A stretch of DNA of 14,924 nucleotides from Candidatus Geocrenenecus huangii (GTDB lineage Archaea > Thermoproteota > Nitrososphaeria_A > Caldarchaeales > Wolframiiraptoraceae): positions 1 to 14,924 of the forward strand of contig JALNLM010000023.1 of the NCBI GenBank assembly GCA_023254095.1, given 5' to 3'. A model generated the notes under the pieces. That model had not been told where the DNA came from, searched no databases, and worked only from the letters and a program-made list of their open reading frames with translations. The translations under genes were made by a program, and so were the position numbers. Below, piece by piece: positions 3-12,725 of this stretch. Each line of letters starts with the position of its first letter. Position 1 is the stretch's first letter.

Positions 3-935
3 AAGGGTAGAGACTTCATTACTACTAGAGATTTTACGAAGGAGGATCTTGAGTTTCTACTAGATTTATCTTCTCATTTTAAATCAATGTTTTATGGAGG
101 TATGAGGAAAACTCTTAGAGATGTTTTAGAAGGTAGGAATATTGCTTTACTCTTCAAGAAGCCCTCGACTAGAACTAGGAACTCTTTCCAAGTTGCAGCC
201 AGTAGGCTTGGAGCACTTTCAGTATATATGAGACCTGATGAGCTACAGCTTGCTAGAGGCGAACCCATCATTGATACAGCGAATGTTCTAGATAGATATT
301 ATGATGGATTAGTTATCAGAACATTTGAGCAAGCTGAAGTTGAAGAATACGCTAGATACATGAAGAATCCTGTAATCAATGCTTTAACAGACGAGGAGCA
401 TCCATGCCAAGCTATGGCCGACTTACTCACTATAATAGAGAAGAAGAGTAGGCTAGATGGATTAAGAATGGTTTACACCGGAGATGTATGGAATGTATGT
501 CACTCACTTATTACTGTAGCACCTGTATTCGGTATAGATTTGATAATAGCTGTTCCAAGAGGGTATGAGCCTCTACCCGAGATATGGAAGTTTGGTCAAG
601 ATAGAGCTTCGAGAAATGGTACAAGGCTAGAGATCGTTCACGATATCAGAGAAGCCGTGAAGGGAGCAGACATAGTATATGCTAATACTTGGTGGAGCAT
701 GGGTAAGCCTGAGATGGAGAAAGAGAAAAGAAAAATAGACTTCAAACCATTTACGGTAACGGCCGACATCATGAATCTAGCTAAGGAAGACGCAATATTC
801 ATGCATTGTCTACCAGCCTACAGGGGAAACGAGATGACCACAGAGGTAATTGAAGGAAAATGGTCAGTAGTATACGACCAAGCAGAAAACAGATTATGGA
901 CAGAGGCAGCAATATTGGCTGCACTAATCTCATAA
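3..935 (+). CDS. argF: Ornithine carbamoyltransferase-family transcarbamylase, 5'-truncated at the window edge; substrate possibly not ornithine
   Basis: The frame is open from base 3 (KGRDFITTRDFTKEDLEFLLDLS..., a typical OTC N-terminus), so the ATG at 87 is internal. Motifs: STRTR (165-179), HPCQ (399-410), WWSMG (690-704), HCLP (804-815), ENR (885-893). Confidence 0.85.
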   Translation, partial: KGRDFITTRDFTKEDLEFLLDLSSHFKSMFYGGMRKTLRDVLEGRNIALLFKKPSTRTRNSFQVAASRLGALSVYMRPDELQLARGEPIIDTANVLDRYYDGLVIRTFEQAEVEEYARYMKNPVINALTDEEHPCQAMADLLTIIEKKSRLDGLRMVYTGDVWNVCHSLITVAPVFGIDLIIAVPRGYEPLPEIWKFGQDRASRNGTRLEIVHDIREAVKGADIVYANTWWSMGKPEMEKEKRKIDFKPFTVTADIMNLAKEDAIFMHCLPAYRGNEMTTEVIEGKWSVVYDQAENRLWTEAAILAALIS

Positions 936-1019: not shown

Positions 1020-2381
1020 ATGTTTAACTTGGAGTATGAAAAATTCAAGAAGAAGAATAGTACCTCGTGTAGGATATTTGAGGAGAGTAAGCTTTTTACA
1101 CCTTGTGGTGTTCACAGTAATTATAGAGTCCACGACCCGTTTCCAATCTTCGTAAGTAGAGCTAAAGGGTCTAGGATATGGGATGCTGATGGAAACGAGT
1201 ACATAGACTTCAACATGGCCTTCGGGGCCCTCGTAGCAGGTCACTCCCACCCCATAATTGTTGAAGAATTAAAGAAAGCACTAGAAGAAGGTACAATTTT
1301 CGGACATGAATCAAGCGAATCAGTTAAGCTTGCAAAGATACTATGTAATAGGTTCAACCTAGATATGGTTAGATTCAACTCGACTGGCATGGAGGTTACC
1401 ATGTATGCTGTTAGGCTGGCCCGAGCGTACACGGGTAGAAGCAAGATCATGAAGTTTGAAGGATGCTATCATGGAAGCAACGATAATCTACTTGTAAGCG
1501 TTAAACCCCACCTCTCAAAAACTGGACATATTAAGCATCCCATATCTGTGCCTGCCTCGCCGGGACTGTTACCTGAAGTCTCGAAGTACACAGTGGTGGC
1601 TCAATTCAATGATGTGGAATCTGTAGATAAGCTCTTCGGAAAACATGGAGATGAGATAGCTGGAGTGATACTTGAACCAGTAGCGATGAACATGGGCGTG
1701 ATAGAGCCTGACCCAGAATTTCTGAAAACGTTGAGAAAACTATGTGATGAATACAATTCTGTCCTCATATATGATGAGGTGAAAACATGCGGTAAATGGT
1801 TTGGTGGGGCAGAAGAAAAGTATGGTGTAAAGCCTGATTTGAAGACTTTAGGCAAGGCGATAGGGGGAGGAATACCATTATCCGCTATAGGTGGGAGAAG
1901 AGAGATCATGGAGCTTTTTGGGCCGGGTAAGGTCTCTCATGCAGGGACATTTAACGCAAACCCTCTATCAGTCAAAGCAGGAATAACAACGTTAGAGAAG
2001 ATCCTTACTAAAGATGCGTTAAGTAGAGCTGGAAGGTTAGGTGAACAGCTTGCTAACGGATACAGGGATATAGTAACAGACTATAAGATAAAAGCATTGG
2101 TCAGCTCTATAGGCGTAAGCGGAGCAGTACTTTTCACCGACCAAGAACATGTTAGAAACTATCGTGAACTACTCAGATGCGATTTTGGTAAATGGTTTGG
2201 ATACTTCATCTCCATGTTGAATAGGGGAATTATTCCCGCTGCGACAGGACCGGATGAGCAGTGGACCATTTCGGTCCAACACTCTTCAGAAGATGTTGAA
2301 AAGCATATTGAAGCGTTCAAAGAAGTGGCATCAATGATTAAAGATATTAAGCAACCACTGGAAATGGTTGAAGCAGTTTAA
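1020..2381 (+). CDS. Class III PLP-dependent aminotransferase, glutamate-1-semialdehyde aminomutase (HemL)-like
   Basis: WDADGNEYIDF, FEGCYHG, ILEPV, YDEVKT, GKAIGGG (PLP lysine codon at 1854), HAGTFNANP; 453 aa; good RBS. It diverges from canonical HemL motifs, so no symbol is given. Confidence 0.85.
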   Translation: MFNLEYEKFKKKNSTSCRIFEESKLFTPCGVHSNYRVHDPFPIFVSRAKGSRIWDADGNEYIDFNMAFGALVAGHSHPIIVEELKKALEEGTIFGHESSESVKLAKILCNRFNLDMVRFNSTGMEVTMYAVRLARAYTGRSKIMKFEGCYHGSNDNLLVSVKPHLSKTGHIKHPISVPASPGLLPEVSKYTVVAQFNDVESVDKLFGKHGDEIAGVILEPVAMNMGVIEPDPEFLKTLRKLCDEYNSVLIYDEVKTCGKWFGGAEEKYGVKPDLKTLGKAIGGGIPLSAIGGRREIMELFGPGKVSHAGTFNANPLSVKAGITTLEKILTKDALSRAGRLGEQLANGYRDIVTDYKIKALVSSIGVSGAVLFTDQEHVRNYRELLRCDFGKWFGYFISMLNRGIIPAATGPDEQWTISVQHSSEDVEKHIEAFKEVASMIKDIKQPLEMVEAV

Positions 2382-2525: not shown

Positions 2526-3644
2526 ATGTGGAGAACGTATTATAAAAAGGTTAAGGGTGTTTCCAAGCTTTTACTTATAATAGTAATTGTTGTCATCTTG
2601 ATTGTGAGCGGGATAGCCGCATATACTCTTACCCAGATCCAGACGCCAACAACATCTAGAATTATTTCACCCGGCAAGCTGGTAGTATTTGTCTGGGAAG
2701 ACTTCACAGTTCCAGATGTATTCGATCCCCTCACCAAGAAGTATCCTACACTAACTATCGAAAACAACATATTCACTTCTCAGCCGGAGATGCTTGCAAA
2801 ACTTATGGGGGGATTCAAAGCAGATGTTGTAAGTCCATGCATAGATTTCCTACCTAGACTAATCGAGCAGGATATGCTACAGCCTATCGACTTGGCTCGA
2901 CTCAGCAACTGGAACAACATATTCAAGAGTATCAGAGAGTATCCAGGAATATGGAGAGATGGGAAACTCTACATGGTTCCAACAGCTTTCGGTCTCCAGG
3001 CAGGAGTAACATACAGAAAAGATAAGGTCTCCTCCATAAATAGCTGGGCCGACATATTCAATCCCGCATATAAGAATAGGGTATTGATACTTAACGATGC
3101 GAGAATAGGTATTGTGATGGCTGCGTGGGCTCTAGGCTACGAACATCCATGGAATCTAACAAGCCGAGATCTTCAAAGAATTGCAGAATTCTATAAGGAA
3201 CATAGAGACGTGATCTTAAAGTTTTATGAAAGTGATATAGAGGCCAGAGAGCTGTTAGCCTCTGGGGATGCATGGATTATTGCTGGAAGCGGTCCAGCCC
3301 AATCATATTGGTTGATGTCTGAAGGGATAGAAGCAGAGTTCGTGCTCCCAGAAGGTAAAGGGATAGGCTGGTTATGTGGTTTAAGCATCTTGAAAGCATC
3401 AGAGAACCTTGAAGGAGCACATCTCTACATAGACTACTTCATCTCTGAAGACCCGCAAACATACTATGCTTATGAATGGCTTTACGGTCCAACAAATGAA
3501 AACGTTTTCAGAAAGATTCCAGAAGAGAAGCTTAAGGAGAGTGGGATAGTTGGGCCGGAAACGTTATCCGAGGTCTTGCCACTAATCGATCCGCCAAATC
3601 TGGATGAGTGGCTCCAGGTCTGGGAGAAAATAGTTGCAGGATAA
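2526..3644 (+). CDS. potD: PotD/PotF-family ABC substrate-binding protein with N-terminal membrane anchor
   Basis: Basic N-terminus plus hydrophobic helix; LVVFVWEDF, SINSWADIFNP.YK.RV, PEGKGIGW, A..YIDYF motifs; precedes potABC-like genes. Confidence 0.8.
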   Translation: MWRTYYKKVKGVSKLLLIIVIVVILIVSGIAAYTLTQIQTPTTSRIISPGKLVVFVWEDFTVPDVFDPLTKKYPTLTIENNIFTSQPEMLAKLMGGFKADVVSPCIDFLPRLIEQDMLQPIDLARLSNWNNIFKSIREYPGIWRDGKLYMVPTAFGLQAGVTYRKDKVSSINSWADIFNPAYKNRVLILNDARIGIVMAAWALGYEHPWNLTSRDLQRIAEFYKEHRDVILKFYESDIEARELLASGDAWIIAGSGPAQSYWLMSEGIEAEFVLPEGKGIGWLCGLSILKASENLEGAHLYIDYFISEDPQTYYAYEWLYGPTNENVFRKIPEEKLKESGIVGPETLSEVLPLIDPPNLDEWLQVWEKIVAG

Positions 3645-3651
3645 AGCAGGC

Positions 3652-4713
3652 ATGGTCTTGCTTGAACTAGTAAATATATACAAGTATTACGGGAAGATAA
3701 CCGCTCTAGAAGATATAAATCTAGAAGTTGGGAAGGGTGAACTACTAACAATATTGGGTCCGAGCGGAAGCGGTAAGAGCACTCTACTAAAAATTATAGG
3801 AGGATTCGAGGAGCCCTCGAGAGGAAAGATATACATTAACGGGAAATTAATGAATGGTGTACCACCGTATGCGAGACCTACAAGTATGGTCTTCCAAGAT
3901 CTTGCATTGTTCCCCCATCTAAACGTATTCAACAACATAGCCTACGGATTAAAGATAAAGAAGGCGCCGTCTAATGAGATAAAAAAGAAAGTAAGAGAGG
4001 TGGCTGAGCTACTACATATTGAAGAACTTCTAGATAGAAGGGTAACCCAGTTAAGTGGAGGTCAGCAGCAGAGAGTAGCTCTAGCACGTTCCCTTATACT
4101 CGAGCCTGAAATACTATTGCTTGATGAACCTTTGGGACCCTTAGATGTGAAGCTCAGGAAGGAAATGCAGTTAGAGCTACGTAGAATACAGAAGAGATTA
4201 AACTCTACATGGATATACGTCACTCACGACCATGAAGAAGCAATGGTTATGTCCGATAGAGTGGCTATACTGAATTCTGGTAGGATAATTGATGTAGGGG
4301 TGGTCAAGGAGATATATGAGAAGCCCAAGAATAGATTCATCGCAGAGTTTCTAGGAGAAGTAAATATAATCGAATGCATAGTAGACCATGTAGAAGGTAG
4401 CGCATTCACAGCCTCCAGCGGAGACTTAAGAATAGAAGGATTAACAGCTGGAAAACTAGAGAAAGGTGATAGGGTAAATATCTTGGTAAGACCTGAGAAG
4501 ATCGGAATTACTGTCACTCCGCTAAATGATAGAAAGAACTCCGTGTCAGGGAAAGTGGTAGAGATAATCTATAAAGGAGCCTACAGCGATGTTAAGATAG
4601 AAACTGAGGATTCTAGGGTCTTCATTGCTAGGACTTTTGAGCCTGCCTATCGTGTTGGAGAGAGGGTCTTCCTGAAATGGGATAGGGAAGATGCGGTTGT
4701 GATTAAAGAATGA
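3652..4713 (+). CDS. potA: PotA-like ABC ATP-binding subunit
   Basis: Walker A GPSGSGKS, VFQDLALFPHL, signature LSGGQQQR, Walker B LLLDEP, VTHD, and a TOBE-like C-terminus. The ATG at 3652 is preferred to the TTG at 3634, which overlaps the upstream gene. Confidence 0.9.
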   Translation: MVLLELVNIYKYYGKITALEDINLEVGKGELLTILGPSGSGKSTLLKIIGGFEEPSRGKIYINGKLMNGVPPYARPTSMVFQDLALFPHLNVFNNIAYGLKIKKAPSNEIKKKVREVAELLHIEELLDRRVTQLSGGQQQRVALARSLILEPEILLLDEPLGPLDVKLRKEMQLELRRIQKRLNSTWIYVTHDHEEAMVMSDRVAILNSGRIIDVGVVKEIYEKPKNRFIAEFLGEVNIIECIVDHVEGSAFTASSGDLRIEGLTAGKLEKGDRVNILVRPEKIGITVTPLNDRKNSVSGKVVEIIYKGAYSDVKIETEDSRVFIARTFEPAYRVGERVFLKWDREDAVVIKE

Positions 4714-5579
4714 ATTTAGAGAAGATACGTAGAAAAATATCAATAAATCTTCTATATTCCCTACCAGCGATAATATATCTAACAATCTTCTTTTATATTC
4801 CCCTGATCACAATAATTGTTTATAGTTTCTGGCATGGTGAGCCTCTCTACCGTGTAGTTAGAACCTTCACATTGGAAAATTATGTAAAATTCTATACGGA
4901 AGAATTATCTCAGAATATCTTCATATTAACGAATCTAATATCTATCGCGACATTCCTGGTAATACTGGCGACAGCGTATCCAATAGCGTATTTCCTCGCT
5001 AGGATGGTTAAAGGAGATACAGGTCTGAAAATAATTCTTCTAATACTGATTCCTCTTGAAATGAATTATCTAATCAGGGTATTTGCCTGGAGAAACCTGT
5101 TAGGAGAGAACGGCTTACTGAATAGTCTCCTCATGTTTCTAGGCTTAGTTGAGCAGCCTCTAACAATATTTTTCCACAGTATCCCAGCCATAATCATCGT
5201 GGTGCTACACAATGCATTGCCATACGCTATCATCCCACTCTACATAACTATTAGAAGCATTCCTGAGAGCTTGTATCAGGCAGCCATGGATCTCGGGTCG
5301 AATAGGATTAGTGTATTCTTCAGAGTAACGCTTCCACTTAGTATGCCTGGAGTAGCGATAGCATTCTTATTCATCTATATACCGATGATGGGTGAATTCG
5401 CTATTCCAGCTCTAGTAGGTGGGAAAACATATCTGCTTGGAAATCTAATCGTTAGGCAGTATCTCACTATAGGTAACTGGCCATACGCTTCAGCATCAAC
5501 CATAAGTTTGATATTAACTACTCTGATAGTTATGTTTATTCTTTTCAAGTTCTTAGGGGTTAGGAGGCTTTACGAATGA
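4710..5579 (+). CDS. potB: PotB-like ABC permease
   Basis: Multiple TM segments; AYPIAYFLAR, IRVFAW, EAA-type loop SLYQAAMDLGS...F.RVTLPLS.PG, NWP; ATGA overlap with potA. Confidence 0.88.
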   Translation: MNLEKIRRKISINLLYSLPAIIYLTIFFYIPLITIIVYSFWHGEPLYRVVRTFTLENYVKFYTEELSQNIFILTNLISIATFLVILATAYPIAYFLARMVKGDTGLKIILLILIPLEMNYLIRVFAWRNLLGENGLLNSLLMFLGLVEQPLTIFFHSIPAIIIVVLHNALPYAIIPLYITIRSIPESLYQAAMDLGSNRISVFFRVTLPLSMPGVAIAFLFIYIPMMGEFAIPALVGGKTYLLGNLIVRQYLTIGNWPYASASTISLILTTLIVMFILFKFLGVRRLYE

Positions 5580-6370
5580 GTTTAATCAAGCTTTTCCTTA
5601 AAATATTTACATCAACGGTTATCCTACTACTTATCTACCTACCGATAGCATTAGTCATCCTGTTCTCTTTCAATGATAGCATATACTTCATATTTCCATT
5701 TAAGAATTTCACATTTAAATGGTATGAGAGGCTACTCGAAGACCCCCTATTCTTGAAGAGTATAATCAACTCGATAATTATCGCGTTAGCTGTATCTGCT
5801 GGGTCGCTGTCTATAGGTATTCCAGCATCTTTTGCATTTGTAAGATTGAGGAGGAACACGTTATACGTAGGGTTTATCATGATACCGTTCATCATGCCAT
5901 GGCTTGTAATCGGTGTCTCATCACTGGTATTCTTCCACACTCTTGGGATACCTTTATCTATTCTAACGACTGTCTTAAGCCACATAATCTATAGCATACC
6001 CCTTGTAGTGTTAATCGTGGCGGCTAGACTGATCAGTCTCAACCCAAACTATGAGAAGGCAAGTATGGATTTGGGGGCCAATGAAGTCCAAACATTCACT
6101 TATGTAACTTTTCCATTAATCTATCCTGCGATATCGGTCTCAGCTTTAATAACTTTCCTTTGGTCATTCGATAACTTTATCATAACGTTTTTTACGATAG
6201 GCTCAGAGATCACGTTCCCGATCTGGGTCTGGGGATCCCTAAGGCATCCAACTAATGTCCCAGTTATAACTGCCGCATCATCCATAGTTATATTAGTAGG
6301 CTCTCTAATAGTCTACTTGATGGAGACTTACAGGGTCAAGAAAGGAATAGGAATCTACGCCATAATCTAG
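5576..6370 (+). CDS. potC: PotC-like ABC permease
   Basis: IYLPI..VILFSFN, FTFKWY, EAA loop YEKASMDLGA, SFDNF; ATGA overlap with potB. Confidence 0.88.
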   Translation: MSLIKLFLKIFTSTVILLLIYLPIALVILFSFNDSIYFIFPFKNFTFKWYERLLEDPLFLKSIINSIIIALAVSAGSLSIGIPASFAFVRLRRNTLYVGFIMIPFIMPWLVIGVSSLVFFHTLGIPLSILTTVLSHIIYSIPLVVLIVAARLISLNPNYEKASMDLGANEVQTFTYVTFPLIYPAISVSALITFLWSFDNFIITFFTIGSEITFPIWVWGSLRHPTNVPVITAASSIVILVGSLIVYLMETYRVKKGIGIYAII

Positions 6371-6375
6371 CCTTA

Positions 6376-6431
6376 CCATGGTTGTTCAAGCATCCTCTTC
6401 GGAGAACCTTCAAGGGATGACTTGGTTATGG
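6376..6431. terminator. Imperfect long stem-loop between convergent potC and aor; possible terminator or stability element
   Basis: CCATGG/TTATGG, CAAG/CTTG and CATC/GATG pairings enclose CTC-TTCG-GAG. Confidence 0.35.
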
Positions 6432-6442
6432 AGATACGGGTA

Positions 6443-8260
6443 TCAATATTCAACGTCTATTTCAAGTCTCTTCAATGTTTCCCCTATAGGTCTTCCCTCT
6501 TCATCCCATCCTCTAAGTTTGTAATATTCGGAGAGAGACTCCTTGAACTGATGTAGGTCAACTGTTTTCCCATCTGTTTTTCCACCCTTCAAGGGCTCAT
6601 TGAACATCTTGGGAGGCAGAGTATCGTCTTCCTTCTTGAAGCCTTCTCTAAGATTGAATACTCTAGAGATATTCCAGATTCTCTCGCCGATGATCTTTAA
6701 TTCTTCTACTGTGTAGTCTCTTCCAAGGGCAGGTCTTAGAAGTTTGACCATGTCTTCATAACTCGAAAGCCAGAAATCACATATTATCAGTGACCATTTA
6801 ATGCTATTCAGGTCTTGTAAGTCTTTAACGAGCTGGGCTTTCCCCACAAAGCTGTATGGGTCCATTTCACCGAATGCGTCATATGCTACTGCCCAAGCTC
6901 TGAGATGGCATGCTCCTCTATCTGCTGTAGCGTATGCCAGAGCCATCCCGTACGTCCCCCTAGGATCGTATGCTGGTATCTCAGCCCCCTTCACGTCTAA
7001 TCTCTCTTTCAATGCTTCTCCACGGATCTTTTCAGCGGCTCTTCTTGTCCCCTCAGCGAGCAGATTCCCAAACCCCCTTCTATACGCTATCATCTCGCTC
7101 AACTCGATTAAGAATTCGACATCATTCCAAGAAGGCTTTAATCCGTTAAGATCCTTCTCTGAAATCATTCTCTTCTCATAGAGATGGATCGTGAAACCTA
7201 TTGTAGCTCCGAGAGATATCGTATCCATTCCGAGGTCTGTAGCTACTTCAGCTACTTCCGCAACATCTTTAAGATTTCTCAAACCAGTGTTGGAGCCGAG
7301 CATTGCTAATGTTTCATATTCTGGAGATTTGATCAGTCTAGAGTCGAATTTCAGTATCCTTTTACATGCGAGTGGACAATACGGGCAAGCGTACTTCTTA
7401 GCTGTGGCCTCTTTCACTCTATCCGTGTTGATCTTATCATGGTATTCGAATGATCCTGACATGAAGCCGTATGTTGGTAGAACTCCAGCATTATGTGAAA
7501 TATCAACTATTAATGGTGTACCATCGGTCTGCGCCCATAGATTCTCCGAGGTCTTTACTCTATTCCGTGTTAACTCGACCACGGTCTCCCTGAATTTATC
7601 TGGGTCGTATAGTCTGACATCACCCTTAATGTTCCTAACCACCAGTGCTTTAAGATTCTTAGATCCAAATACTGCTCCAGCCCCCCCTCTCCCATGCACC
7701 CATAATCCGCTATCAACGACGGATGCGAATCTGATGAGGTTCTCTCCAGCTGGACCGATAGCTAGAACACTAGCATTTTCATCTCCTAATTCTTCTTTAA
7801 TACGTCTCGACGTCTCAAGAGTTCCTAAACCCCATAAGTTCTTGGCATCATGAAATTCTACGCCTTTTTCCGTAATCTCAATATAAGTGGGTTTATCAGC
7901 TCTGCCTTCAACTATCAGTAAATCATATCCGGAATACTTCATCCTAACACCGAAGTATGATCCACTATAACTATCACACACGGTATTTGTTAAAGGGGAC
8001 TTGGTAATGATTGGGTATCTTCCAGAGAGGGGGGCGATGGTTCCGGTAAGTGGACCAGTAGAAATGATTATCTTATTATCAGGGCTCAGAGGATCGATCT
8101 TCGGAGAAACTTCTTCAAGTAGATATCTGATGCCTAACCCTCTACCCCCGATATATTTCTCGACGAAGTCTCTTCTCGTCTTCTCGATACTGAAGCCTTT
8201 ACTTGTTAAGTTGATTCTTAGAAGCCTCCCAGTATAACAATACAGTTTTTCATTAGTCAT
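6443..8260 (-). CDS. aor: Tungsten-containing aldehyde:ferredoxin oxidoreductase (AOR family)
   Basis: YTGRLLRINL, YIGGRGLG, KSPLT, IGPAGEN, GRGGAGAVFGSKNLKA, CPYCPLAC (Fe-S), EYET, GMDTIS, RGACHL, C-terminal YYKLRGWD; 605 aa. Confidence 0.93.
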   Translation of the reverse strand: MTNEKLYCYTGRLLRINLTSKGFSIEKTRRDFVEKYIGGRGLGIRYLLEEVSPKIDPLSPDNKIIISTGPLTGTIAPLSGRYPIITKSPLTNTVCDSYSGSYFGVRMKYSGYDLLIVEGRADKPTYIEITEKGVEFHDAKNLWGLGTLETSRRIKEELGDENASVLAIGPAGENLIRFASVVDSGLWVHGRGGAGAVFGSKNLKALVVRNIKGDVRLYDPDKFRETVVELTRNRVKTSENLWAQTDGTPLIVDISHNAGVLPTYGFMSGSFEYHDKINTDRVKEATAKKYACPYCPLACKRILKFDSRLIKSPEYETLAMLGSNTGLRNLKDVAEVAEVATDLGMDTISLGATIGFTIHLYEKRMISEKDLNGLKPSWNDVEFLIELSEMIAYRRGFGNLLAEGTRRAAEKIRGEALKERLDVKGAEIPAYDPRGTYGMALAYATADRGACHLRAWAVAYDAFGEMDPYSFVGKAQLVKDLQDLNSIKWSLIICDFWLSSYEDMVKLLRPALGRDYTVEELKIIGERIWNISRVFNLREGFKKEDDTLPPKMFNEPLKGGKTDGKTVDLHQFKESLSEYYKLRGWDEEGRPIGETLKRLEIDVEY

Positions 8261-11912: not shown

Positions 11913-12013
11913 ACCAGCATATACTAAAACATCCATTTAAAATCTCCCAGCTTTCCAACATTCATATACGGAAATCATATAAACACTCTAAGCCTACTCA
12001 AAAATGTAGATTT

Positions 12014-12184
12014 GTATCTAGAGTAACTGGTGGAGAACTATTAAAACGATGCCTAATACAAGAAAATGTAAAATATGTGTTTGGCGTTCCTGGAGACCAG
12101 CTGTATCCATTCTTGGACACAATATACAAGGATGAAAGACTGGAATTTATTACGTTTCGTCATGAAGCAGCAGCTTCTTCGTAA
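12014..12184 (+). pseudogene. 5' remnant of a thiamine-diphosphate-dependent enzyme (acetolactate synthase/POX family)
   Basis: Translates as VSRVTGGELLKRCLIQENVKYVFGVPGDQLYPFLDTIYKDERLEFITFRHEAAASS*, with the TGGELL, VFGxPG and RHExxA motifs. The start position reads GTA, and the frame stops after 56 codons of an enzyme usually about ten times longer. Confidence 0.85.
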
Positions 12185-12276
12185 GCTTTATTCTTATTCA
12201 ATTCTTCTTTATACGTTCTAATACACTCTTCACTAGGGAACCTATACTTCTCCAATCTATACCGCAAATAATTCAT
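12160..12276 (-). other. 38-codon minus-strand ORF, possibly the 5' remnant of a second gene
   Basis: MNYLRYRLEKYRFPSEECIRTYKEELNKNKAYEEAAAS*; purine-rich and coding-like; AGAAAAATTAATA upstream on the minus strand (12302-12290). Family not recognised. Confidence 0.3.
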
Positions 12277-12686
12277 CCTAGAAAATGGATATTAATTTTT
12301 CTAATAATTACTTACTGGGAGACCATGCCTAGCTCATAATGTTTAACATAGACGTGAGAGTTGCTGCGATGCTGACCCCTGCGCTGCCTCCGATACTAGG
12401 TTCTTCCTTGGTCCTAGATTATCCTCCCTAGTATTCTCTCCTTAAATGTATCTAGTTTTTAAAATTTCTAATGATTTTTCAGAGAATATTCTTGCTAGAA
12501 AATACTCCTAGAATTATTATTGAGGGATAGTTAAGGGTAACGTTAAGTAGGTCAATAGTGCAACGACATTACTCTAGCTGGCAGGGCATCGAAAACCTAG
12601 ATACTGCAAAATATCGACTACGTATTTCTCAAGGAACTGGGATGCCGCCTCGAGTTGAAGCTTTCCATCCTCTTCAATGTATAGGT

Positions 12687-12699
12687 AAAGGTTTATGAA
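12687..12699 (+). promoter_or_regulatory. Putative BRE-TATA of rps12
   Basis: AAAGGTTTATGAA, ending 27 nt before the ATG at 12726; no SD sequence. Confidence 0.45.
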
Positions 12700-12725
12700 A
12701 TACTGTTTAATATCAGATTCTTGGA

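Follow-up and report, generated by a model that had tools for sequence, protein, structure and literature searches.

An ornithine transcarbamylase-like protein of a Caldarchaeales archaeon belongs to a conserved clade with an altered amine pocket and a possible role in omega-ureido acid catabolism

Introduction

Ornithine transcarbamylase (OTC) holds the alpha-ammonium group of ornithine with the Asp of its DxxxSMG motif, and the alpha-carboxylate with N167, K53 and the backbone of SMG, a picture that comes from complexes with PALO and norvaline. The subject of this paper is a variant OTC-family transcarbamylase in which that Asp is replaced by Asn. The gene lies at the start of contig JALNLM010000023.1 of Candidatus Geocrenenecus huangii (assembly GCA_023254095.1), and the whole stretch analysed, 14,924 nucleotides, is referred to as the window. 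According to a 2015 review of the family (PMC4581275, cited throughout from a partial text), the OTC residues that bind ornithine are D231, S235 and M236 of DxxxSMG, helped by N167 and, through water, by K53. The same source uses DxxxSMG to set OTCs apart and gives Gln for the OTC Lys in putrescine transcarbamylase (PTC). A role in deprotonating the reacting nitrogen has been suggested for Asp263 and Cys303 of the human enzyme (PMC9506655, partial text).

Among the possibilities that the review leaves unproven is a catabolic beta-alanine transcarbamylase, and the available part of the text lists no clade of the kind described here. The full-text literature searched, with subscription journals outside its reach, gave no description of a transcarbamylase for omega-amino acids or 4-aminobutyrate (GABA), of a guanidinobutyrate deiminase or of the motif reported below. 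At roughly even confidence, and judging from sequence and gene neighbourhood, the variant is proposed to be a catabolic transcarbamylase for an omega-ureido acid that lacks an alpha-amino group, most likely converting 4-ureidobutyrate to GABA. The clade to which it belongs is a large, mis-annotated group of transcarbamylases that probably has a new substrate class and a new pathway; omega-amino acids would then be a class of substrate new to the family.

The variant transcarbamylase

The reading frame of the transcarbamylase runs off the 5' end of the contig and, since the contig starts inside the gene, its first six codons are absent. The full-length form (P0002) comprises 316 amino acids and is 100% identical to the window translation. 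Both Pfam domains are recognised in the window protein (PF02729 at 1.5e-45 and PF00185 at 2e-51), and domains, motifs and fold all place P0002 in the aspartate/ornithine carbamoyltransferase superfamily. An AF2 model of the variant has a pLDDT of 95.3 and aligns with OTC structures at TM scores of 0.93–0.95, its best structural matches being unknotted OTCs.

A first-pass annotation, made from the letters alone, had described STRTR, HPCQ and HCLP as intact, and all three are found in frame, STRTR at 165–179. It had also reported that GDGNNV has become GDVWNV, that DxxxSMG has become NTWWSMG and that ENRLH has become ENRLW. The translation bears these changes out, as do alignments with E. coli ArgI and with the best solved relative, Pyrococcus furiosus OTC (PDB 1a1s), in which gdvwnv is paired with gdgnnv, yantwwsmg with ytdvwasmg and enrlw with enrlh. 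ArgI residues K53, N167, D231, S235, M236 and R319 correspond to K59, N170, N234, S238, M239 and R303 of P0002. Among these six literature residues the Asp alone is replaced (Asn codon at 684–686) and the other five are kept. The earlier view of an intact carbamoyl-phosphate site beside a remodelled pocket for the second substrate is therefore upheld by both alignments, and by the clade-wide counts that follow.

The variant clade

The variant residues are fixed, or nearly so, across a large set of relatives. Among the 120 best database relatives, 118 carry N-T-(W/F)-(H/W)-S-M-G together with GDxWNV. A broader comparison set opposed 181 rows of the variant clade to 93 rows of canonical OTCs, the latter drawn from fetched loci with the canonical OTC of this genome added. 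At position 234 all 181 variant rows have Asn, where 89/93 canonical rows have Asp. Every variant row has an aromatic residue at position 169 (W 171, F 5, Y 5), a site that is mostly Asn (76) or Asp (11) in canonical OTCs. Position 237 holds His (154), Trp (26) or Phe (1) in the variant and V/A/I/T in canonical OTCs, and position 168 is V/I/P/L in 178/181 variant rows and Gly in 87 canonical rows. Overall, ten clade-specific positions separate the two groups. The residues K59, N170, STRTR, R112, H139, Q142, C275 and R303 are kept in all 181 variant rows, and L276 in 177.

Because Asn is fixed in 181/181 members of a monophyletic clade, the replacement is neither a sequencing error, a possibility that the first-pass annotation had itself raised, nor chance. 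The pocket signature proposed at that stage stands in part: Asn234 and the aromatic residue at 169 are clade-wide, and the Trp of ENRLW (position 305) is not part of the signature, occurring in only 20/181 variant rows, all within the subclade of the window. ENRLW was accordingly rejected as a clade marker. The Tyr of HCLPAYRG was also rejected, being present in 178/181 variant rows and in 17/93 canonical OTCs as well.

Three subclades can be told apart by their loops: subclade A, which includes the window, has NTWWSMGKP with FKKPSTRTR (8 loci); subclade B has NTWHSMG (45 loci); and subclade C has NTFHSMGHK (36 loci). Metagenome-assembled genomes containing clade members are labelled Caldarchaeum, Bathyarchaeia, Bacillota, Chloroflexia, Anaerolineae and Deltaproteobacteria. 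Clustering at 50% identity shrinks the clade to about four representatives above the canonical OTCs, and is unsuited to estimating its size.

Phylogenetic placement agrees with the residue pattern. A tree was computed from 277 sequences thinned by identity to 72, namely 32 variant sequences, 39 canonical OTCs and, as the single outgroup, the aspartate transcarbamylase (ATCase) of this genome; it was a quick search with SH-aLRT supports and no bootstraps. The variant sequences group in a single clade (SH-aLRT 100) that lies within the canonical OTCs, 25 of which make up its sister group (support 83). Three closely related proteins that pass the PTC model, from 3/121 Bacilli genomes, were added; the variant clade kept its support of 100 and the PTCs formed a separate clade, also at 100. 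The PTC loci in the tree show FEQSSTRTR and GDATQV and encode 331–342 amino acids. For OTC and PTC, then, the phylogenetic comparison suggested by the first-pass annotation places the variant as a distinct clade inside the OTC radiation. This clade appears to have arisen from ornithine transcarbamylases, and it is conserved and uncharacterised.

Comparison with family definitions gives a similar result. P0002 retains the Lys of FxKxSxRT and the Asn167 of OTCs (as K59 and N170), and has NTWWSMG in place of the OTC-defining DxxxSMG. On the PTC model TIGR04384 it scores 270.6 against a cut-off of 500, and its sequence traits are not those of PTCs: it has FKKPSTRTR, keeps SMG and is 316 amino acids long. 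The low score, the Lys instead of Gln and the separate clade all bear out the initial judgement that this is not a standard putrescine transcarbamylase. The combination of HCLP with NTWWSMG, with no HDLP, differs from DPTCase and DBTCase, and scores on the models for knotted transcarbamylases (AOTCase, SOTCase, YgeW) stay well below their cut-offs (NF003384, 161.6 vs 288; TIGR03316, 95.6 vs 500).

Close relatives of the clade depart further from the OTC motifs. In P0028, P0181, P0182 and P0183 the corresponding segments read ALTWYAMG with GVIWN, NTFHSMAH with HCGP, and GNTFHPA with GTLHG, and the pocket appears to be still diversifying among such proteins. In addition, about a dozen fusion proteins of 460–720 amino acids among the 150 best representatives carry an OTC-like domain at their C-terminal end (P0193, P0196, P0216, P0226, P0234, P0238, P0249, P0286, P0306, P0309 and P0313).

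Gene neighbourhoods

A scan of genome contigs gave 6 variant loci among 80, the other 74 being canonical OTCs, since one search pattern was shared by both. Metagenome contigs were scanned with a back-translated loop pattern, which returned 118 stretches; 80 were fetched, and 78 of these contained a motif-bearing transcarbamylase frame. Together with the window and the loci of its relatives, the metagenome stretches gave 89 loci, in which neighbours were counted within 8 kb.

The most frequent neighbours, in counts that are not independent of one another, are a deiminase-fold protein of three sequence types (31/89 loci), a class-III aminotransferase (30/89) and a major facilitator superfamily (MFS) transporter (21/89). 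Less frequent are a saccharopine-dehydrogenase-family protein (10/89), a Liv/Urt-type binding protein (9/89), carbamate kinase (8/89), aldehyde:ferredoxin oxidoreductase (AOR), a TRZ/ATZ-type amidohydrolase and an ATCase-like gene (5/89 each), and an M20 deacylase (4/89). If the count is restricted to loci flanked by 4 kb or more (53 in all), the deiminase fold occurs 19 times, carbamate kinase 7 times and the aminotransferase 26 times. In subclade B the deiminase-fold gene usually lies 1–100 nt from the transcarbamylase on the same strand, and subclade C usually shows the order transcarbamylase, MFS transporter, aminotransferase. Carbamate kinase adjoins the transcarbamylase in L004 and L164 (36 nt), and the two neighbouring carbamate kinases that were scanned both pass TIGR00746. 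The ATCase-like second transcarbamylase lies 1–4.6 kb from the variant (L129, L131, L158, L180 and L193), and that of L180 passes the ATCase equivalog (258.8 vs 236.95).

Among the 27 full-length aminotransferase neighbours, 24 were scanned at E 1e-125, the three excluded being the HemL-like proteins of the window and of two related genomes (G001 and G003). Six of the 24 pass the GABA-transaminase equivalog cut-off of 506.65 and 12 more score 473–503. As for the remainder, one is HemL-like, two match other models only and three match nothing at this threshold.

The deiminase-fold partners are more remote from described families. In G001, a 471-amino-acid protein with a weak arginine-deiminase match is encoded 408 nt upstream of the transcarbamylase, on the same strand. 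Its orthologue in the genome studied here (P0122; 474 amino acids, 66% identical) is encoded at 62–1486 of contig C26, on the minus strand and 61 nt from the contig end, and is the sole member of the deiminase/amidinotransferase fold family found in that genome. The transcarbamylase of G003 is 96% identical to that of the window and, because the DNA upstream of it matches the end of C26 (positions 52–268, at 87%), C26 very probably abuts the start of the window.

A structural model of P0122 (pLDDT 91.7, from a 43-row alignment) retrieves arginine deiminases as its top Foldseek matches, along with amidinotransferases, ArgZ and DDAH, at probability 1.0 and 13–17% identity. Its alignment keeps YxRD, RRGEE, EGGN, GxRG, HLD and a C-terminal GGGGxRC; when mapped by inspection, these motifs appear similar to those for catalysis and carboxylate binding in arginine deiminase. 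A profile search of P0122 against solved arginine deiminases gave a match in the C-terminal stretch only, to amidinotransferases at E ~0.003, and phmmer gave nothing. The ESM Atlas yielded generic 'amidinotransferase / arginine deiminase family' clusters only. Across the loci, deiminase-fold neighbours score 21–106 bits against arginine-deiminase cut-offs of 414–489. One of them, in L007, could be aligned with Pseudomonas arginine deiminase: FTRD, EGGD, HLD and GGGxHC are kept, as are both Arg residues that contact the substrate carboxylate, and Tyr stands in place of Asn. The roles of these substrate-binding residues, two carboxylate-binding Arg and an Asn, are taken from PMC3474736 (partial text). 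The agmatine deiminase family was unmatched among the neighbours scanned against Pfam.

In the window itself (Table 1), the transcarbamylase is followed by genes for an aminotransferase, an importer and an AOR. The aminotransferase scores 412.8 vs 398 on NF000818 and, with 398 vs 527 on TIGR00713 (hemL), falls below that equivalog cut-off; the same pair of transcarbamylase and HemL-like aminotransferase occurs in G003. The importer consists of a binding protein (2526–3644), an ATPase (3634–4713) and two permeases (4710–5579 and 5576–6370). Downstream of the G001 transcarbamylase lies the gene for an aldehyde dehydrogenase (ALDH) that passes the model for the methylmalonate/malonate-semialdehyde dehydrogenase (MMSDH) subfamily (493.9 vs 448.5).

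Table 1. Features of the window around the variant transcarbamylase
Feature	Position	Strand	Basis or remark
Variant OTC-family transcarbamylase, subclade A	3..935	+	PF02729 and PF00185, TIGR00658, variant-clade placement
K59 of FxKxSTRT with STRTR, phosphate-binding motif; Lys as in OTC	159..179	+	Translation, ArgI alignment
HPCQ, carbamoyl-binding motif, intact	399..410	+	Translation, alignments
GDVWNV: Gly to Val, first Asn to Trp, second Asn (E. coli N167) kept	480..497	+	Alignments
NTWWSMG, 240s/SMG loop: E. coli D231 to Asn; fourth position Trp (His in most of the clade)	684..704	+	Alignments
HCLPAYR: HCLP intact (804–815), Tyr where His is commonest	804..824	+	Translation, row counts
ENRLW: Arg (E. 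coli R319, carbamoyl-phosphate ligand) kept; His to Trp	885..899	+	Alignments
Class-III aminotransferase, HemL-like paralogue	1020..2381	+	PF00202; 85 nt downstream of the transcarbamylase
PotD/PotA/PotB/PotC-type ABC importer	2526..6370	+	All scores below equivalog cut-offs
Aldehyde:ferredoxin oxidoreductase (AOR), convergent with the cluster	6443..8260	-	PF02730 and PF01314

Other observations concern the wider surroundings. Beyond the deiminase-fold gene, contig C26 (L247) encodes an M20 ArgE/DapE-family deacylase (4700–5812, plus strand) and a second class-III aminotransferase (5875–7305, minus strand). Elsewhere in the genome, a region of another contig (L248; C11:50000–66314) contains genes for permeases, an ATPase and a PotF/PotD-like binding protein, together with three carboxynorspermidine-synthase-like genes of the saccharopine dehydrogenase family and one for an MMSDH-like aldehyde dehydrogenase (444.2 vs 448.5). 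This gene set adjoins the variant transcarbamylase in G001 and G003, and L248 is a candidate polyamine or omega-amine catabolic locus.

A search at Rfam gathering thresholds for a riboswitch or other RNA clue to the ligand, covering the window and 15 long clade loci, gave none: the matches were tRNAs and one unrelated TPP riboswitch only. No tRNA was detected in the window. Between its genes for pyruvate phosphate dikinase and ribosomal protein S12 lie 813 nt (11913–12725) that hold no open reading frame of at least 80 amino acids and no tRNA or Rfam match. This stretch may be a gene remnant; within it, a 35-amino-acid frame (12077–12184) is one that we take to resemble the N-terminus of a thiamine-diphosphate enzyme.

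Host genome and carbamoyl phosphate supply

The assembly (1.6 Mb, 96% complete) contains three transcarbamylase genes: the variant, a canonical OTC on contig C9 and an ATCase-type gene on contig C15. The canonical OTC (L001, 1495–2454, minus strand) has GDGNNV, DVFVSMG, HPLPAHRG and ENRLH. Its HPLP in place of HCLP is a peculiarity of its own, Pro being found at this position in 18/93 canonical OTC rows. Within the genus, the variant occurs in 5/8 genomes (one partial), and a single genome from a different family within the order has it too; in the other relatives the best match is a canonical OTC at no more than 47% identity. The variant is an accessory paralogue, given this patchy distribution and the canonical OTC in the same genome. 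Paralogues are unusually many in three other genomes that carry the variant, from Bacillota, Bathyarchaeia and Chloroflexia (G042, G043 and G044), which have 5, 6 and 9 transcarbamylase-family matches.

A search of this 96%-complete genome for the large subunit of carbamoyl-phosphate synthetase found none (best match 16 bits), and all 14 of 14 control genomes gave a match. A carbamate kinase is encoded on contig C22 and passes its family cut-off (425.3 vs 358.25). A similar situation has been reported for many Thermococcales, including Thermococcus kodakarensis, which lack a carbamoyl-phosphate synthetase homologue and make carbamoyl phosphate by the arginine synthetase pathway (PMC13260591, partial text). 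By analogy, the variant module could also feed carbamoyl phosphate to biosynthesis in this genome. On that reading it would bear on the carbamoyl phosphate source of an archaeon in which no synthetase was found. The possibility that P0122 is itself arginine synthetase (ArcE) was rejected: ArcE resembles cyclic 2,3-diphosphoglycerate synthase, according to a source available in part, and P0122 has the deiminase/amidinotransferase fold.

Substrate and proposed pathway

Across the clade, K59 and N170, read as carboxylate contacts, are kept, and only the negative charge of the Asp is lost. Trp169 and His/Trp237 add bulk to the pocket. Taken together, kept carboxylate contacts, lost charge and added bulk point to a carboxylate substrate that lacks an alpha-ammonium group and does not exceed ornithine in length. 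GABA could suit such a pocket: one of its carboxylate oxygens would lie at the place of the ornithine alpha-nitrogen, where it would be repelled by Asp but could accept a hydrogen bond from Asn. GABA is favoured because most of the partner aminotransferases are GABA-type enzymes, and the phosphorolytic direction because of the linkage to carbamate kinase. A carboxylate substrate also fits the context, since the L007 deiminase-type partner keeps the carboxylate-binding Arg pair. The first-pass suggestion that the substrate may lack an alpha-amino group thus gains support from common GABA-transaminase-type neighbours, from the kept Lys and Asn and from the gene context.

3-Ureidopropionate and 5-ureidovalerate are alternative substrates. 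For the enzyme of the window, beta-alanine or 3-aminoisobutyrate is possible, because the ALDH of G001 is of the malonate/methylmalonate-semialdehyde type and the Trp of subclade A is bulkier.

Motifs, clade, neighbours and folds are the observations from which substrate, reaction direction and product fate are deduced, and on these grounds a sequence of steps can be proposed. A guanidino acid would be converted to a ureido acid by the deiminase-fold enzyme encoded directly upstream or, in subclade C, perhaps by an amidohydrolase-type deaminase instead. The variant transcarbamylase would then use phosphate to split the omega-ureido acid into an omega-amino acid and carbamoyl phosphate. Carbamate kinase would draw ATP from the carbamoyl phosphate, some of which may also feed the canonical OTC and the ATCase of this genome. 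The omega-amine would become an aldehyde through the adjacent aminotransferase or a saccharopine-dehydrogenase-type enzyme, and the aldehyde would be turned into an acid or acyl-CoA by AOR or ALDH.

In its most specific form, which is put forward tentatively, the NTW[HW]SMG clade and its deiminase-fold partners would constitute an undescribed guanidino-acid deiminase pathway leading from 4-guanidinobutyrate through 4-ureidobutyrate to GABA and carbamoyl phosphate. In peptide-fermenting anaerobes, arginine oxidation by the 2-oxoacid route is expected to end in 4-guanidinobutyrate. Such a pathway would be a new ATP-yielding route for guanidino and ureido acids in anoxic sediments, peat and hot springs, its extra ATP coming through carbamate kinase. 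In Caldarchaeales genomes with no detected synthetase, it could also be a main supplier of the carbamoyl phosphate used to make pyrimidines and arginine.

Several observations weigh against the proposed omega-ureido acid substrate. P0002 passes the OTC equivalog TIGR00658 (366.8 vs a cut-off of 280.85), and the source labels of P0002 and its relatives all say OTC. The window aminotransferase is HemL-like and not GabT-like, and the importer is of the PotD type, the usual hint of polyamines. The deiminase-fold gene lies off the window, its adjacency in this genome being deduced across a contig break, and the genome's carbamate kinase is on a different contig from the variant. Many of the GabT-like neighbours score similarly on the 'acetylornithine aminotransferase family' model, and the 89 loci include near-duplicate contigs (e.g. 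L005, L137 and L162) and many short ones. Finally, the change from Asp to Asn could reflect an altered mechanism or reaction direction and not only an altered substrate, because the Asp is credited with a part in deprotonating the reacting amine (PMC9506655).

Alternative explanations

A first alternative keeps an ornithine-like substrate, with an altered alpha position or a longer chain, such as N-alpha-acyl-citrulline, homocitrulline/lysine or O-ureidohomoserine/canaline. Some neighbours would suit it: M20 ArgE/DapE-type deacylases occur near 4/89 loci and on the genome's own C26, and saccharopine-dehydrogenase-family genes near 10/89 loci, 13 nt upstream in three. The Asn could moreover hydrogen-bond an amide. 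However, Trp169 and the bulky Trp/His at 237 should shrink the pocket, the N-acylornithine transcarbamylases are knotted enzymes of another branch (PMC4581275) on whose models the variant falls below the cut-offs, and GabT-type partners dominate among the neighbours. A substrate of this kind seems doubtful.

The variant might also be a diverged catabolic ArcB that acts on citrulline in an ordinary arginine deiminase pathway, with the aminotransferase handling ornithine. The pass on TIGR00658, the kept SMG, Lys and second Asn, and the arginine deiminases that are the closest folds to P0122 would all be expected in that case, and deiminase-fold enzyme, transcarbamylase and carbamate kinase together match the arcABC set. 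Nevertheless, the OTC-defining Asp, kept by the great majority of canonical OTCs, catabolic types in PDB alignments included, is Asn throughout the variant clade. The genome already has a canonical OTC, and the deiminase-fold neighbours score far below the arginine-deiminase cut-offs. None of the 24 scanned aminotransferase neighbours reaches the ornithine aminotransferase model at E 1e-125; the GabT-type neighbour in L006, for which one full score table is available, scores 272 vs 378 on it. This explanation is judged unlikely.

The PotDABC-type transporter, aminotransferase and AOR of the window recall polyamine use, and a convergent putrescine transcarbamylase of the agmatine deiminase pathway could be imagined, in which PotD-type uptake is followed by putrescine transamination and oxidation of the aldehyde to GABA; the logic of deiminase, transcarbamylase and carbamate kinase would suit agmatine too. 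The PTC model score, the Lys in place of Gln, the absence of a longer C-terminus and the separate clade speak against it. PTC, moreover, keeps the Asp (D227; PMC4581275) that the variant has lost, the L007 deiminase-type neighbour keeps the two carboxylate-binding Arg of arginine deiminase, and no Pfam-scanned neighbour matched the agmatine deiminase family, all of which makes a putrescine enzyme quite improbable. An anabolic role, in which an amine is carbamoylated on the way to a cofactor, compatible solute or natural product, would have a parallel in the anabolic DPTCase and DBTCase, which also differ at the Asp position (PMC4581275), but it is very hard to reconcile with catabolic neighbours (carbamate kinase, deiminase-fold enzymes, transporters, aminotransferases, AOR and ALDH), with loci that showed no biosynthetic cluster and with the absence of HDLP.

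Comparison with known systems

The assignment has consequences for annotation. Members of the clade are labelled 'ornithine carbamoyltransferase' and their neighbours 'arginine deiminase', so metabolic reconstructions based on these labels would report an arginine deiminase pathway for what is probably something else. A simple rule, Asn for the loop Asp together with an aromatic residue for the first Asn of GDGNN, could be used to correct such labels.

The closest described relatives are the OTCs (ArgF/ArcB; 1a1s and E. coli ArgI). The variant shares their unknotted fold (TM 0.93) and about 45–50% identity, and has in common with them STRTR, HPxQ, HCLP, the Arg of ENR, the Lys of FxKxSTRT, the second Asn and SMG. 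It differs in having Asn for the Asp of DxxxSMG, Trp for the first Asn of GDGNN and Trp or His for the small residue before SMG, and its neighbours are unlike arg or arc operons.

Two other systems on the OTC branch offer partial parallels. The PTC of Enterococcus faecalis (TIGR04384) is likewise catabolic, tied to a guanidino deiminase and a carbamate kinase, and remodelled in the 240s loop. However, as described in the partial text available, it keeps the Asp, is without SMG, and has the Gln of FxQxSTRT, GDATQV and a C-terminal extension of about 20 residues. In DBTCase and DPTCase the loop Asp is replaced too (TRWQSMG or (T/S)RWQTTG), with SMG kept in DBTCase (PMC4581275). According to the same partial text, those enzymes have HDLP and a Lys for the Arg of ENR, are anabolic and belong to antibiotic clusters, whereas the variant has HCLP and the Arg and lies in a catabolic context.

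At the level of the pathway, the nearest counterpart is the arginine deiminase pathway (ArcA-ArcB-ArcC). The proposed route would follow the same three-step logic, in which a guanidino group is converted to a ureido group by a Cys-dependent deiminase-fold enzyme, the product undergoes phosphorolysis and ATP is formed. It differs in a deiminase-fold enzyme far below the family cut-offs, a transcarbamylase without the defining Asp and aminotransferases that are GABA-transaminase-like. By analogy, the variant would work in the manner of the transcarbamylases of the arginine and agmatine deiminase pathways, while belonging to neither.

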